DNA of 64,000 nt from Candidatus Latescibacterota bacterium. Its GTDB lineage: Bacteria > Latescibacterota > UBA2968 > UBA8231. This document shows, piece after piece, positions 56,103-58,872 of the stretch. The position numbers were made by a program, and so were the translations under genes. Below the pieces are notes generated by a model. It was not told the DNA's origin. It did no database searches and saw only the letters and a list, made by a program, of their open reading frames with translations. The stretch is from NCBI GenBank assembly GCA_965243025.1, contig CBDETY010000003.1, forward strand, positions 5,920,001-5,984,000, in the 5' to 3' direction. Numbering within the stretch: position 1 is the first letter of the stretch; each line of letters opens with the position of its first letter.

Positions 56103-57142
56103 TCAGCCAAATACCCAGGTCGATCCGGGGGGGTTGCCGGCGAACACCGCGGTCAGCAGGGCCCCGGCAGCGATGAACGGCGCGAAGGGAAAAGCCTGTT
56201 CCAGCTCGATTTCATTTTCTCCTGCCTGGCTGCCTTTACGTCCCAGCTCCCGGAGGCGGCGCGCCTGCGCTTTTGTCAGGGGCTGCCCTCCTCGCAGAGC
56301 AACTCGCCATCTCCTGTGTTCACACGGGTTCGGGGCACGTCTCCGGCCCGGATCTCGCCGGCCGGAAGCGACTGCACCAGGGCGCGGCCGTACTGGAAGC
56401 GCACCTGCAGGTACACCACTTCGAGCACCCAGACCACGCCCAGCATCATCACATAGTCCTGCCATGCCCCGGTCGCGTGTAACAGGTAAAGCAGGGCCGC
56501 AAGGCCTGGAACCAGGATCACGCTCCAGTATCTGTCTTCCAACCCCCGGTCGAGCAGGACCCAGCCGGCGACCAGGGCGGCAAAGGCCTCGAGGTAGCTG
56601 AGGGGGCGTCCCAGCACCAGCCAAGCGAAGCTCAGGGTCAGACCCAACAGCCCGGCCAGGCCAAGGGCGGCGCGCAGCCACTGTCTCCCCCCGGGGCGGG
56701 CGGGGTTGGTTTCTTTCTCCCGGCGCCACAGCGGCACCAGCAGCAGCACGAGCAGGTAGCAGATCAGACTGTTCAGGATCAGGGCGAAGGGCGCGGCCTG
56801 CATGGCCAGCGGTTCGGGTGACGGGCACAGGCTCGGGGGCAGGGCAGCGACCACGGCCCAGAACAGCTTGGCGTCACCCGGGGCCCAGAACCCGAACAGG
56901 GTCAGCCCGACGGCCACCGCCAAGCCGATGCCTAACAAGGCGGCGACGCGGCCAAACGTGGTCACGTCCAGGGCCACCATCGCCGCCTGCCCGATCAGCC
57001 CGATCCCGAGCAGGGCGAGGGTGTAGCGATTGGGCACCCGCCTCGCCTTCAGGTCGGTGTAGCTGGTGTAGAAGCCGACGGTCAGCAGGGTGGCGAGCAT
57101 GGCCGTCTCGACCAAAAAGACCGGGTCCGTGAACAGGATCAT
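56103..57142 (-). pseudogene. A24 prepilin/preflagellin peptidase with frameshifted C-terminus
   Basis: YTDLK and APGDAKL aspartates are intact. A 1-nt deletion near 56283 (GSP* instead of GQPLTK) and a further small deletion near 56130, both relative to the intact paralog. Confidence 0.8.
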
Positions 57143-57738
57143 CGGCTACCCTGTCCCCCCAGGACGTCGGCGACCAGGGCCCGTACCAGCTTGGCTCCCT
57201 CCGGTTCGCCCACCCCGGAAGCGGCCACCTTGGCCTGGGCGTCGAGCAGGTAGGTGGTGGGCACGCCGCTTGTCCGGTAGGCGTCGAAGGTGCTGCCGTC
57301 GGCATCCTCCAGCAGCGGAAACTGTGCGACGAGCTCCGCCTGCAGGTCGGCCTCCTCCTGCGCCGGCTCCCGGCCGGTGCCGCCCCCGCGCTGAATGAAC
57401 AGCAGGCGTTGGCCCAAATCGGGCAGCCCCTCGTCGAGCACGGTGCGCATCAGCTGGCGGCTGTACGGACAGGAGAAGCTGACGAACACGGCGGCCGCAG
57501 ATTCTCCCTTGAGATCCCCCAGGCTTACGGTGTTCTCCCCGGCCACGTCCGGCAGCTCGAAGTCGGGGGCAGGCGTTCCCCGGGAGAGCAGGGAGGACCC
57601 TTCATCGACCATGCGCAGGAGCAGGGAGGACTGAGGGTCCCGGCCCTCGGGCGGTTCCCCGGTCGCCAGGGCGGCGATCAACCCCAGCGCCAAGGCGCCT
57701 CCGGCCAGCAAGGGCTTGAGTGCGTTGCGATCCATCAT
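57139..57738 (-). CDS. Membrane-anchored redoxin (TlpA/AhpC-TSA fold, CxxS)
   Basis: N-terminal hydrophobic helix, GTPAPDFELPD, FSCPYS, GVPTTYLLD. ATGA overlaps on both sides. Confidence 0.8.
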   Translation of the reverse strand: MMDRNALKPLLAGGALALGLIAALATGEPPEGRDPQSSLLLRMVDEGSSLLSRGTPAPDFELPDVAGENTVSLGDLKGESAAAVFVSFSCPYSRQLMRTVLDEGLPDLGQRLLFIQRGGGTGREPAQEEADLQAELVAQFPLLEDADGSTFDAYRTSGVPTTYLLDAQAKVAASGVGEPEGAKLVRALVADVLGGQGSR

Positions 57739-58277
57739 CCCCCTTTTTCCGATTCGTTCCAGGCCGCCAGGACCTCGGTGATGCTGCGGCTGCCGGTGGC
57801 GGCATGGCCGACCACCCCGCGCCGGTCGATAAGCAGGGCGCTGGGCACTCCGCGCACGTCGTAGAGCCGGTGCACCGTCTGCTCTTCGTCGTGGCCGATG
57901 GCGAGGGCGGCCTCTCCGATGTTGGCCCGCACCAGGTCCGGGTCGCCGGTGGCGACGGCGACAATGGGCAGCACCTCGGCAGCCGCCTTCACTGCCGGGT
58001 AGGCGGCCTTGCAGGCCCCGCAGGCGGCGTCGGTGAAGTAGAGCACCCAGGCATCGGCTCCTCCGGCTCTGGCCAGGGACACGGTTTCTCCCCCGAGGCC
58101 GGGCAGGATGAAATCGGGCGCCTGCCGGCCCAGCAAGTGGGCGAACGGCTTGGGCGGCAGACCGGGCGGCGCCCCGGTATCCAGACGCGCGCCGATGCCG
58201 ATGCACAGCGCCAGCAGCAGTCCCGCGGCCGCGGACAGCGGCTTTACCATGGGGTTCATCTCCAATCGATCAGCCAT
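57735..58277 (-). CDS. Membrane-anchored thioredoxin-fold protein (TlpA/MauD-like, CGAC)
   Basis: N-terminal TM helix, GRQAPDFILP, ACGACK, GVPSALLIDRRG. Confidence 0.82.
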   Translation of the reverse strand: MADRLEMNPMVKPLSAAAGLLLALCIGIGARLDTGAPPGLPPKPFAHLLGRQAPDFILPGLGGETVSLARAGGADAWVLYFTDAACGACKAAYPAVKAAAEVLPIVAVATGDPDLVRANIGEAALAIGHDEEQTVHRLYDVRGVPSALLIDRRGVVGHAATGSRSITEVLAAWNESEKGG

Positions 58278-58872
58278 TTCCCTTGCTTTCGGTTGCCCTT
58301 CTCGAGGCGAACCAGGAACCCAGCCCGCGCAGCTCGGTCAGCATGGCCCCGACCGTCAGGGTCGCCCCGCTGATGCCATCCAGGTCTTTGCCCAGCCGCA
58401 AGGAATCGCCCAGGGAGGTCCCTTTCAGTTGCCCCAGGAACGTCTCCGGATCGAAGGAGCCGCTCTCCTTCTCCCAGGCTTCCAGGGGGGCCACTCCTGC
58501 GATCTGCCGGGTCGAGGCGGTCAGGTAGACCGCGGCCAGCAGGTCGCGGCAGGTGCCGCAGGCGATGTCGTGGCGGAGCAGCGCCAGGGCGTAGACCGGC
58601 CGGCCGTTGTCCGAGACCCGGTAGAGCTGCAGCAGGCCGGAGCGGGGCAGCGGCCGGGCCTCGTGGATCAGCTGGAGGTCAGGGGAAGCGAGCGAAGGGT
58701 CGAACTGCCGGGTAACGGGGAGAAGCTGTGTCGCGGAGGGAAGCTCGGGGAGCCCCGGATCGAAGCGGAGGGCGCGGGCATGGGAGTAGAGGTGGAGGAG
58801 AACGGCGACTCCTCCTGCCAGGCCCAGGATCAGGCCGCAGGATATCAGTACTGCCGGTTTGGGGGTAGTCAC
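58270..58872 (-). CDS. FMN-binding domain protein with CxxC motif
   Basis: N-terminal TM helix, DIACGTCRD, C-terminal flavinylation motif LDGISGATLT. Confidence 0.8.
   Translation of the reverse strand: MTTPKPAVLISCGLILGLAGGVAVLLHLYSHARALRFDPGLPELPSATQLLPVTRQFDPSLASPDLQLIHEARPLPRSGLLQLYRVSDNGRPVYALALLRHDIACGTCRDLLAAVYLTASTRQIAGVAPLEAWEKESGSFDPETFLGQLKGTSLGDSLRLGKDLDGISGATLTVGAMLTELRGLGSWFASRRATESKGNG

Follow-up and report, generated by a model that had tools for sequence, protein, structure and literature searches.

An operon encoding a CxxC-bearing FMN-binding protein, two thioredoxins and an A24 peptidase, with a possible role in disulfide formation where DsbB and VKOR are missing

Genes and promoters at the locus

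We analyzed one 64,000-nucleotide (nt) stretch of DNA from Candidatus Latescibacterota bacterium (GenBank assembly GCA_965243025.1, contig CBDETY010000003.1, positions 5,920,001 to 5,984,000 of the forward strand), which is referred to as the window. The subject is one predicted redox operon, which encodes a putative flavin mononucleotide (FMN)-binding protein (FMNb), two thioredoxins (Trx1 and Trx2) and one Peptidase_A24 protein (A24_a). A possible role of the operon is disulfide formation in bacteria that have neither DsbB nor VKOR, the usual enzymes for this task.

The open reading frames (ORFs) of FMNb, Trx1 and Trx2 are all on the minus strand, where a first-pass annotation of the window had placed them. 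FMNb (58270-58872) is 200 residues in length; it starts with a hydrophobic N-terminus that forms a predicted transmembrane (TM) helix, and it contains one CGTC motif (residues 105-108) and one DGISGAT motif (residues 165-171). Trx1 (57735-58277, 180 residues) and Trx2 (57139-57693, 184 residues from the MMDRN start) are both membrane-anchored TlpA/ResA-like thioredoxins, with CGAC and CPYS at their active sites, respectively. The three N-terminally anchored proteins and their motifs are thus as the annotation had described them, and each protein starts with a hydrophobic segment.

FMNb and Trx1 overlap by 8 nt, and Trx2 overlaps the next gene, A24_a, by 4 nt; the overlaps indicate a tight operon. 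A24_a (56095-57142, minus strand) encodes a polytopic membrane protein of the Peptidase_A24 family (PF01478) and is the fourth gene of the operon. Because the peptidase gene is a core member, the unit consists of at least four genes; the trio proposed in the annotation is real, but the unit is bigger, and both the A24 gene and the Cys-rich cargo neighbors had been overlooked. The neighbor of the peptidase gene, CysR1 (55604-55969, minus strand), encodes one candidate cargo protein with 8 Cys residues and a conserved N-terminal motif. One sigma-54-type promoter (TGGCAT-N5-GTGCA, 58950-58965, minus strand) is located ∼80 nt upstream of the FMNb start codon, and the FMNb operon is predicted to be under its control. 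Judged from sequence, the operon unit is FMNb-Trx1-Trx2-A24 peptidase, sigma-54-driven and adjoined by genes of small Cys-rich proteins.

The second peptidase gene of the window, A24_b (62143-63216, minus strand), is an intact paralogue of A24_a. Its listed ORF extends to 63345, into the promoter region, and the likely start is the methionine of MNLFTD. CysR2 (61698-62033, minus strand), directly downstream of A24_b, encodes the second candidate cargo, also with 8 Cys residues. The A24_b-CysR2 pair is preceded by its own sigma-54-type promoter (TGGCAC-N5-GTGCA, 63356-63371, minus strand), and one near-consensus sigma-54 -24/-12 element (C3:2828383-2828398) lies before Trx1 of a second module elsewhere in the genome. 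The pattern TGGCAY-N5-KTGCW occurs at only 26 sites in the 6.8 Mb genome, and three of these precede module operons (window 58965 for FMNb, window 63371 for A24_b and C3:2828398 for Trx1 of the second module). Both window operons also have ∼315 nt of upstream sequence in common (58844-59159 and 63253-63567, 87-97% identity). As read from the sequence alone, one putative NtrC-type activator and sensor kinases are encoded at 48591-52392; beside the second module, one large sigma-54 activator (1061 residues, L114 10697-13882) is encoded divergently.

The FMNb family and its predicted flavin site

The FMNb family was represented by 29 sequences, one per 50%-identity cluster. C105 is present in all 29, C108 in 28 and [ST]GA[ST] in 27; the remaining two lack the SGAT motif, yet they have the Cys loop. 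The first-pass annotation had named loss of the CxxC among homologues as a result that would speak against its proposal; the CxxC is present in 28 of the 29 representatives. A word-index search returned 45 relatives, none of which has an informative name and only one of which has a precomputed FMN_bind match. The exhaustive HMMER search returned 1211 proteins at E≤1e-3, of which 32 reached E≤1e-30. Among the 148 representatives listed, 31 have the CxxC...[ST]GA[ST] signature and seven have it in part (fragments, or one motif lost), whereas the other 110, generic or multi-domain FMN_bind proteins, match in the C-terminal half only. Searching genome contigs with the FMNb profile gave 80 loci, nearly all of them generic FMN_bind proteins caught via the DGISGAT pattern; L002 is the only one of these loci with the CxxC signature. 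By these searches, FMNb belongs to a small and unnamed family, defined by the CxxC.

Several members of the family are fused to thioredoxin domains. The L002 protein (6975-8630 of one contig of a deltaproteobacterial metagenome-assembled genome) is 551 residues in length; besides a signal, it has two AhpC-TSA domains (CDGC in the first) and one FMNb-like domain that carries KDIMCGVCTD and DGISGAT. P0176 and P0183 share this architecture of two AhpC-TSA domains followed by FMNb. P0152 is probably a fusion of one thioredoxin (CPSC) with FMNb; its Redoxin and AhpC-TSA matches are under the Pfam cut-offs. Among other architectures, P0190 has an N-terminal domain without assignment and P0091 has one C-terminal CBM9 domain. 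The fusions with two thioredoxin domains (L002, P0176 and P0183) end in one conserved domain of ∼90 residues with three Cys residues (...ACP.GG.Y...IPRV.C..HGLDP), which has no Pfam match. A relationship of the CBM9 domain of P0091 to the P300 family was also considered and rejected, BLASTP showing no similarity (E 2.1).

In the AlphaFold2 model of FMNb, built from 29 homologues (predicted local distance difference test 83, predicted template modeling score 0.73), residues 6-34 form the N-terminal helix. The top 15 Foldseek matches of the model in the PDB consist exclusively of RnfG or NqrC chains, and 7zc6_G ranks first (E 1.9e-5). For profile comparison, one canonical FMN_bind profile was assembled from the genome's own NqrC and 120 domain segments of multi-FMN proteins (121 domains). 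Aligned to it by hhalign, the profile of the 29 FMNb representatives gave a probability of 98.3% (E 1e-13) over 132 columns. The FMNb alignment was also compared with the genome's single NqrC, and just residues 157-193 were aligned, with a probability of 29%; searching the PDB sequences with the FMNb profile, a sequence-only search that is too insensitive, returned nothing significant (best FMN-related match E 0.94). In the Atlas, the look-alikes of FMNb are FMN_bind clusters at 0.88-0.89, under the level for more than a lead. The Pfam FMN_bind model (PF04205) alone scores FMNb at 15.3 bits, below the cut-off of 22, and the assignment is therefore based on the fold and profile evidence. On the model and the profiles, FMNb is an RnfG/NqrC-fold FMN-binding protein with one N-terminal TM helix.

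The NqrC structure from V. harveyi offers a reference for the flavin site: FMN is esterified to Thr229 in the SGAT motif, and the isoalloxazine is squeezed between loop 6-7 (Leu149 and Trp150) and loop 8-E, which contains the ETPGLG motif; the latter is described there as absolutely conserved in NqrC and RnfG (PMC4348036). In the hhalign alignment, DGISGAT of FMNb aligns with the canonical flavinylation motif, and T171 is the predicted FMN-linked residue. FMNb E134 aligns with the Glu of ETPGLG, the remaining motif being replaced by WEKE--SG with a two-residue deletion; with its variants, the replacement reads WE(K/L)E(S/T)G. Owing to this replacement and deletion, flavin binding in FMNb may differ from that of NqrC. 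A104 and C105 pair with Leu-Trp of the NqrC 'GLW' loop 6-7, and G106-T107-C108 form an insertion there, although the column confidence is low around the CxxC loop. As the aligned NqrC loop is the one packed on the isoalloxazine, the invariant CxxC probably sits next to the flavin in FMNb. One complex prediction of FMNb (residues 38-200), FMN and Trx1 (residues 40-180), run without controls, scored 0.00 and 0.01, the mark being 0.32; it is not counted as evidence either way.

The genomic distribution of ApbE makes flavinylation of FMNb plausible. The window genome encodes one ApbE, which has an N-terminal hydrophobic anchor; besides FMNb, its one canonical FMN_bind protein is NqrC. ApbE is found in 27 of 27 FMNb genomes vs 141 of 168 genomes of the phylum. 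In genus g24, just 8 of 15 genomes have ApbE, and in both FMNb genomes of this genus the apbE gene is located directly upstream of FMNb (G052 C1:3549465-3550292 and G045 C76:41912-42739).

Spread of the module, its thioredoxins, peptidase and cargo

We collected 16 loci around FMNb orthologues from genomes of the same phylum, of which 168 were sampled in total. Of these loci, 15 have a Trx1-type gene, 13 a Trx2-type gene and 14 a Peptidase_A24 gene (partial in two), and the synteny persists down to 28-40% identity. The gene order is either FMNb-Trx1-Trx2-A24 or FMNb-A24-Trx1-Trx2; in genus g12, FMNb lies directly beside A24 and not beside the thioredoxins. On metagenome contigs, three true relatives were found among 80 loci, all on short contigs and all with the same neighbors (FMNb-Trx1-Trx2 in L130, A24-FMNb in L131 and A24-FMNb-Trx1-Trx2-cargo in L132). 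Across the 168 genomes, 27 encode full-length FMNb (E<1e-20), 32 encode the A24 subfamily and 25 encode both. The window genome contains three Trx1-Trx2-A24 modules and one lone A24-cargo pair, with FMNb in the window module only. Paralogous and orthologous Trx-Trx-A24 modules without FMNb had been missed in the first-pass annotation.

Trx1 and Trx2 match Pfam AhpC-TSA (PF00578, cut-off 26 bits) with 42.5 bits (E 7.5e-11) and 36.1 bits (E 7.2e-9), respectively. Trx1 matches the NCBIfam ResA subfamily with an E-value of 1.1e-9, and the weak match to the MauD model has an E-value of 2.9e-6, both below cut-off. Because the scores against the ResA, MauD, DsbE and StoA equivalogs of NCBIfam are all far under the cut-offs, we claim no orthology for either protein. 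The CxxC of Trx1 is kept in 17 of 17 orthologues, and the CxxC and cis-Pro are invariant in 14 aligned orthologues. Trx2 shows no variation at the first Cys or at the cis-Pro among 10 aligned orthologues; of the 14 orthologues that cover the active site, seven have Cys and seven have Ser at its second position. The window Trx2, with CPYS, lacks the redox-active CxxC, whereas Trx1, with CGAC, has it. In the FMNb-less modules of genus g18, Trx2 (CRYC) has an extra C-terminal tail that ends in EDC(D/R)SCR (L210 3961-4545, L212 4823-5404 and L211 4976-5632); this second CxxC could be a shuttle disulfide standing in for FMNb.

A24_a and A24_b score 41.3 and 37.2 bits, respectively, against PF01478 (cut-off 26.5 bits), and the two catalytic residues, Asp of 'TDLK' and Asp of 'PGDAK', are invariant in 15 of 15 aligned orthologues. 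The frame of A24_a is disrupted twice near the 3' end (56095-56303), once within a run of C and once by a deletion of ∼7 nt, and the open frame stops at 56276. Comparison with the intact paralogue, by tblastn and by direct reading of the DNA, indicated that the C-terminus continues in other frames; the disruptions take the last conserved TM segment (PFxP...T) out of frame. A24_a may be a true pseudogene or reflect an assembly error, and the intact A24_b is 5 kb away. The subfamily has one soluble insert of ∼70 residues between the penultimate and the last TM segments (residues ∼290-360 of A24_b), with invariant G...PL residues and variable length. Apparent A24 fusions of 442-570 residues in genus g18 were rejected, as they are over-extended open frames, not added domains.

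The cargo candidates are small ORFs of 83-137 residues adjoining A24 genes. Among 21 loci with an intact A24 gene, 18 contain such ORFs; L098, L107 and L210 have three each, and no cargo gene was found in L108, L213 and L214. All are of the same plan: the short N-terminus carries one conserved motif and, ∼6-8 residues further on, ends in G/A; it is followed by [LFI]xxxW, a hydrophobic stretch, an AxA site and one hypervariable C-terminal domain with 6-10 Cys residues, which usually ends in CxC. The motif is EFxxSxSG in the lineage of the window and FFLSESG, FLRDERG or FIASEDG elsewhere, giving the consensus F-x-x-S/E-x-S/G-G ... G/A, then hydrophobic-x3-W. CysR1 follows this plan, with EFxxxESG...QG|F...W, the hydrophobic segment, the AxA site and the C-terminal 8-Cys domain; its family scan returned only one weak match, to a defensin-like family (E 0.008, below cut-off). 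Class III (prepilin-type) signals have G/A at -1, a hydrophobic stretch and one conserved position near +5. The cargo N-terminus resembles such a signal, and the candidate cleavage site is [GA] | [LFI]xxxW.

The window also contains other traces of the module. Remnants of module genes are located at 59160-59288, 60301-60447, 53791-53923 and 58844-58939; they include one N-terminal fragment of FMNb (92% nt identity to 58792-58866), one cargo leader fragment and one C-terminal fragment of A24. Together with the duplicated upstream region, these remnants are signs of repeated cassette duplication and recombination. P174 (53952-54476, minus strand), a small putative lipoprotein of 174 residues with one CxxxxC pair, recurs beside cargo genes: one copy of 54% identity lies at C3:2821409-2821864, beside the cargo of the second module, and another lies in L094 (13409-13743). 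P174 has no Pfam or NCBIfam family match, and its membership in the system is uncertain. Four minus-strand paralogues of one secreted protein of ∼300-340 residues (52502-53413, 54497-55501, 59317-60288 and 60617-61636) share the conserved tail (V/I)TW(G/A)RIKASL(S/E)(L)E, which looks like a sorting signal; this family has no Pfam or NCBIfam match, and tblastn found well over 100 copies or fragments genome-wide, often in tandem.

Direction of electron flow and relation to known systems

The first-pass annotation had noted that apbE, dsbB and dsbD are missing from the window, which our searches confirmed: the sole ApbE match of the genome is ∼127 kb off and the only DsbD_TM match is ∼3.4 Mb away, DsbB and VKOR were not found genome-wide, and the window genome (96% complete) has no Thioredoxin_4 match either. 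One DSBA-family match is present, like DsbD_TM far from the window. Over the phylum, DsbB is found in 20 genomes and VKOR in 22, together in 40, leaving 128 with neither. None of the 27 FMNb genomes has DsbB or VKOR. FMNb or the A24 subfamily occurs in 34 genomes, only one of which (G093) has DsbB or VKOR. The same pattern is seen within genera: among the 31 genomes of g12, FMNb occurs in 17, DsbB in four and both in none; among the 10 genomes of g18, whose modules are without FMNb, modules occur in five, DsbB or VKOR in four and both in none. This complementarity fits a module that supplies oxidizing power. At the loci examined, the operon has no conserved membrane protein that would donate electrons. 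By their redox potentials, electron transfer from thiol via flavin to quinone or O2 would be downhill, whereas transfer from quinol via flavin to disulfide would be uphill. The complementarity, the missing electron donor and these potentials together moderately favor the oxidative direction.

We propose the following mechanism. The A24 aspartyl peptidase would process the prepilin-like signal of the cargo, and the two membrane-tethered periplasmic thioredoxins would form and shuffle its disulfides, with Trx1 (invariant CxxC) as the oxidase and Trx2 (CxxC or CxxS) as isomerase or holdase. The secreted ApbE of the genome would flavinylate FMNb on T171. FMNb would then re-oxidize Trx1 through its own CxxC, in the loop predicted to pack on the isoalloxazine ring, and pass the electrons to the covalent FMN, from which quinone or O2 would receive them; FMNb would thus stand in for DsbB or VKOR, neither of which was found in the window genome. 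The parts of this proposal differ in strength. FMNb, Trx1 and Trx2 likely form one thiol/flavin relay, and the relay probably serves the Cys-rich cargo; provided that the relay exists, net flow from thiols to flavin is somewhat favored. For the complete QSOX-like oxidase route, from cargo thiols through the thioredoxins, the FMNb CxxC and the covalent FMN to quinone or O2, we see about even chances, and the same holds for the wider view, in which the trio supplies the redox chemistry of a conserved system that matures small exported Cys-rich proteins. The relay of a covalent-FMN/dithiol protein with two thioredoxins, as put forward in the first-pass annotation, is well supported by the synteny, the fusions, the adjacent apbE, the conserved CxxC and the flavin-loop alignment; its choice between electron sink and source is not one that sequence can decide.

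A number of observations weigh against the oxidase proposal. The naive hypergeometric P values for the exclusion (3e-4 for FMNb, 4e-4 for FMNb or A24, 0.03 within g12 and 0.02 within g18) overstate it because related genomes are not independent, and 101 of the 168 genomes have neither system. FMNb is dispensable for the module, being absent from two of the three Trx-Trx-A24 modules of the window genome and from all modules fetched from genus g18, where the genomes with these modules are also without DsbB and VKOR; as the exclusion holds for FMNb-less modules as well, it does not single out FMNb as the sink. No quinone site or other electron acceptor was identified, and the sub-threshold Pfam score, the replaced ETPGLG motif and the low column confidence around the CxxC loop all bear on the flavin site of FMNb. 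The best-known TlpA/ResA/CcmG-like thioredoxins are reductants. Flavinylation, redox activity and peptidase cleavage are all inferred.

The strongest alternative is that the operon works in the reductive direction. A membrane donor (quinol, NQR or other) would feed the FMNb CxxC and, through it, the TlpA-like thioredoxins, so that an isomerase is kept reduced, following the logic of DsbD and DsbC, or a cargo or envelope target is reduced. The matches of the thioredoxins to ResA-, MauD- and DsbE-type models, though all below cut-off, are in line with this, as are the suitability of a CxxS Trx2 for isomerization and the existence of FMNb-less modules, by which the oxidizing step may not need FMNb. 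Known ApbE-flavinylated proteins, too, mostly move electrons outward from membrane complexes (PMC8238504). However, the operon conserves no membrane component to donate electrons, the genome already has one CcdA/DsbD_TM gene for reductive duties, the DsbB/VKOR complementarity suits an oxidant better, and the quinol-to-disulfide route would run uphill, as judged from redox potentials. We consider the reductive direction unlikely.

Still less probable is that the trio constitutes a general envelope system for thiol, peroxide or metal redox chemistry, co-operonic with A24 and the cargo and not acting on the latter, for example in AhpC/TSA-like handling of peroxide or sulfenate with FMN as the electron entry. 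AhpC-TSA is indeed the best Pfam family of the thioredoxins, one FMNb relative is fused to a CBM9 domain, and the L002 fusion adjoins an unrelated HAD hydrolase and SBP_bac_5, with no A24 and no recognizable cargo. The active sites, however, are CxxC in a thioredoxin context and appear to lack the Thr/Arg signature of peroxiredoxins, and in genomes of this phylum, A24 and cargo genes nearly always accompany the trio. Finally, that FMNb is no flavoprotein, its CxxC being structural or metal-binding, its SGAT-like motif an ancestral relic and its role that of a scaffold or chaperone for A24, would agree with the Pfam score, the lost ETPGLG pocket motif, the g12 gene order and the two representatives that lost SGAT while keeping the Cys loop, but it is very improbable given DG[IVM][ST]GAT in 27 of 29 representatives, the ApbE distribution with adjacent apbE in two genomes, and the repeated fusion to thioredoxin domains, which points to redox chemistry.

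With the oxidase proposal as the preferred reading, we compared the operon with known systems. Like RnfG and NqrC, FMNb has one N-terminal TM helix, a periplasmic FMN_bind fold and the D-G-x-[ST]-G-A-T motif at the start of the last helix, and ApbE is encoded in the genome. Different from them, FMNb lies outside any rnf or nqr operon, its partners are thioredoxins and a peptidase rather than ion-pumping subunits, ETPGLG is replaced, the loop 6-7 'GYGG/GLW' has given way to the invariant CxxC, and a canonical NqrC is encoded elsewhere in the window genome. As neither the operon context nor the ETPGLG motif agrees, FMNb is not regarded as an RnfG/NqrC orthologue.

QSOX, Erv/ALR and Ero1 are the flavin-dependent sulfhydryl oxidases of eukaryotes and large DNA viruses. 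The proposed path in FMNb, from a thioredoxin CxxC to a flavin-proximal CxxC, the flavin and a terminal acceptor, is the same as in these enzymes, and the FMNb family contains natural thioredoxin-flavoprotein fusions as QSOX does, with separate genes in the window. The fold, however, is FMN_bind and not the Erv helical bundle, the flavin would be covalent FMN and not bound FAD, and FMNb is bacterial, periplasmic and membrane-anchored; the likeness is one of predicted function only. Owing to the difference in fold, FMNb is not a member of the Erv/QSOX family, though it may work alike. As in the DsbA/DsbB and DsbA/VKOR pairs, a periplasmic thioredoxin-fold protein would be combined with a membrane-anchored recycling partner, and the distribution in the phylum is complementary to that of DsbB/VKOR. 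FMNb has no relation to DsbB, VKOR or DsbD in sequence or fold, being a predicted flavoprotein with one TM helix, and its system appears dedicated: it is in an operon with cargo, sigma-54-regulated by prediction and present in several copies. BdbA/BdbB with sublancin and MauD/MauE are dedicated thiol-disulfide oxidoreductases for disulfide bacteriocins or cofactor proteins. Here, too, a thioredoxin-fold protein is encoded with the putative disulfide-rich product that it would mature; those systems use a DsbB-like or MauE membrane partner instead of a flavinylated FMN_bind protein, and they have no A24.

The peptidase shares with prepilin peptidases (PilD, TadV and FlaK) the Peptidase_A24 family and both catalytic Asp residues, and the cargo has G/A at -1, the hydrophobic stretch and one conserved position at ∼+5. 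Different from class III signals, the +5 residue is Trp and not Glu, the leader carries a conserved F-x-x-S-E-x-G motif, and an AxA signal-peptidase-like site follows the hydrophobic segment; different from PilD-type peptidases, A24 has the soluble insert of ∼70 extra residues. In the fetched loci, genes for pilus assembly were not seen.

Méheust et al. 2021 described hybrid clusters of DsbD, DUF3570, the thioredoxin-like PF13899 and DUF4266, and in P19 clusters FMN-binding and thioredoxin-like genes interchange (PMC8238504). Both there and here, the gene of an ApbE-flavinylated extracytosolic protein (predicted, for FMNb) is coupled to thioredoxin-like genes (PMC8238504). In our case it is FMN_bind with its own CxxC and not DUF3570, the thioredoxins are AhpC-TSA/TlpA-like, and A24 and Cys-rich cargo are added; DsbD, DUF3570 and DUF4266 have no Pfam matches among the cluster proteins. 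The FMNb operon would be an undescribed variation on systems that are already known, in which thiol-disulfide oxidoreductases are coupled to extracytosolic electron carriers flavinylated by ApbE. Neither an FMN_bind protein with CxxC nor clusters of A24, thioredoxin and Cys-rich cargo were found described in open-access papers and bioRxiv, supplements aside. The portions of the Méheust text consulted have no FMN_bind protein with a flavin-adjacent CxxC, TlpA-like partners, A24 or Cys-rich cargo, and Supplementary file 1 of that paper may list such clusters (PMC8238504); the main text of the 2024 mSystems flavinylation paper contains cysteine, thioredoxin, disulfide and CXXC zero times.

We put forward a bolder proposal only tentatively. 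FMNb might be the first of a new class of bacterial disulfide-generating enzymes, a covalently flavinylated, membrane-anchored periplasmic sulfhydryl oxidase of RnfG/NqrC fold, convergent with QSOX/Erv, which together with its thioredoxins replaces DsbB/VKOR where these are missing; it would be tied to an unrecognized export and maturation route, in which A24 cleaves a new class-III-like signal on hypervariable, defensin-sized Cys-rich proteins.

The operon touches the question of how bacteria without DsbB or VKOR, to which 128 of the 168 genomes of this phylum belong, oxidize their exported proteins. If a flavinylated FMN_bind protein with a CxxC next to its flavin recycles the thioredoxins, this would add a third chemistry of disulfide making in bacteria, beside DsbB and VKOR, it would widen the roles of ApbE flavinylation to thiol-disulfide exchange, and it would do so with a compact, testable system of three or four genes. 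The linked A24 peptidase, together with a leader that is conserved although the proteins behind it are hypervariable and have 6-10 Cys residues, suggests a new family of secreted peptides that is processed by a route of its own; an antimicrobial function, or one at the cell surface, is conceivable for such Cys-rich peptides.

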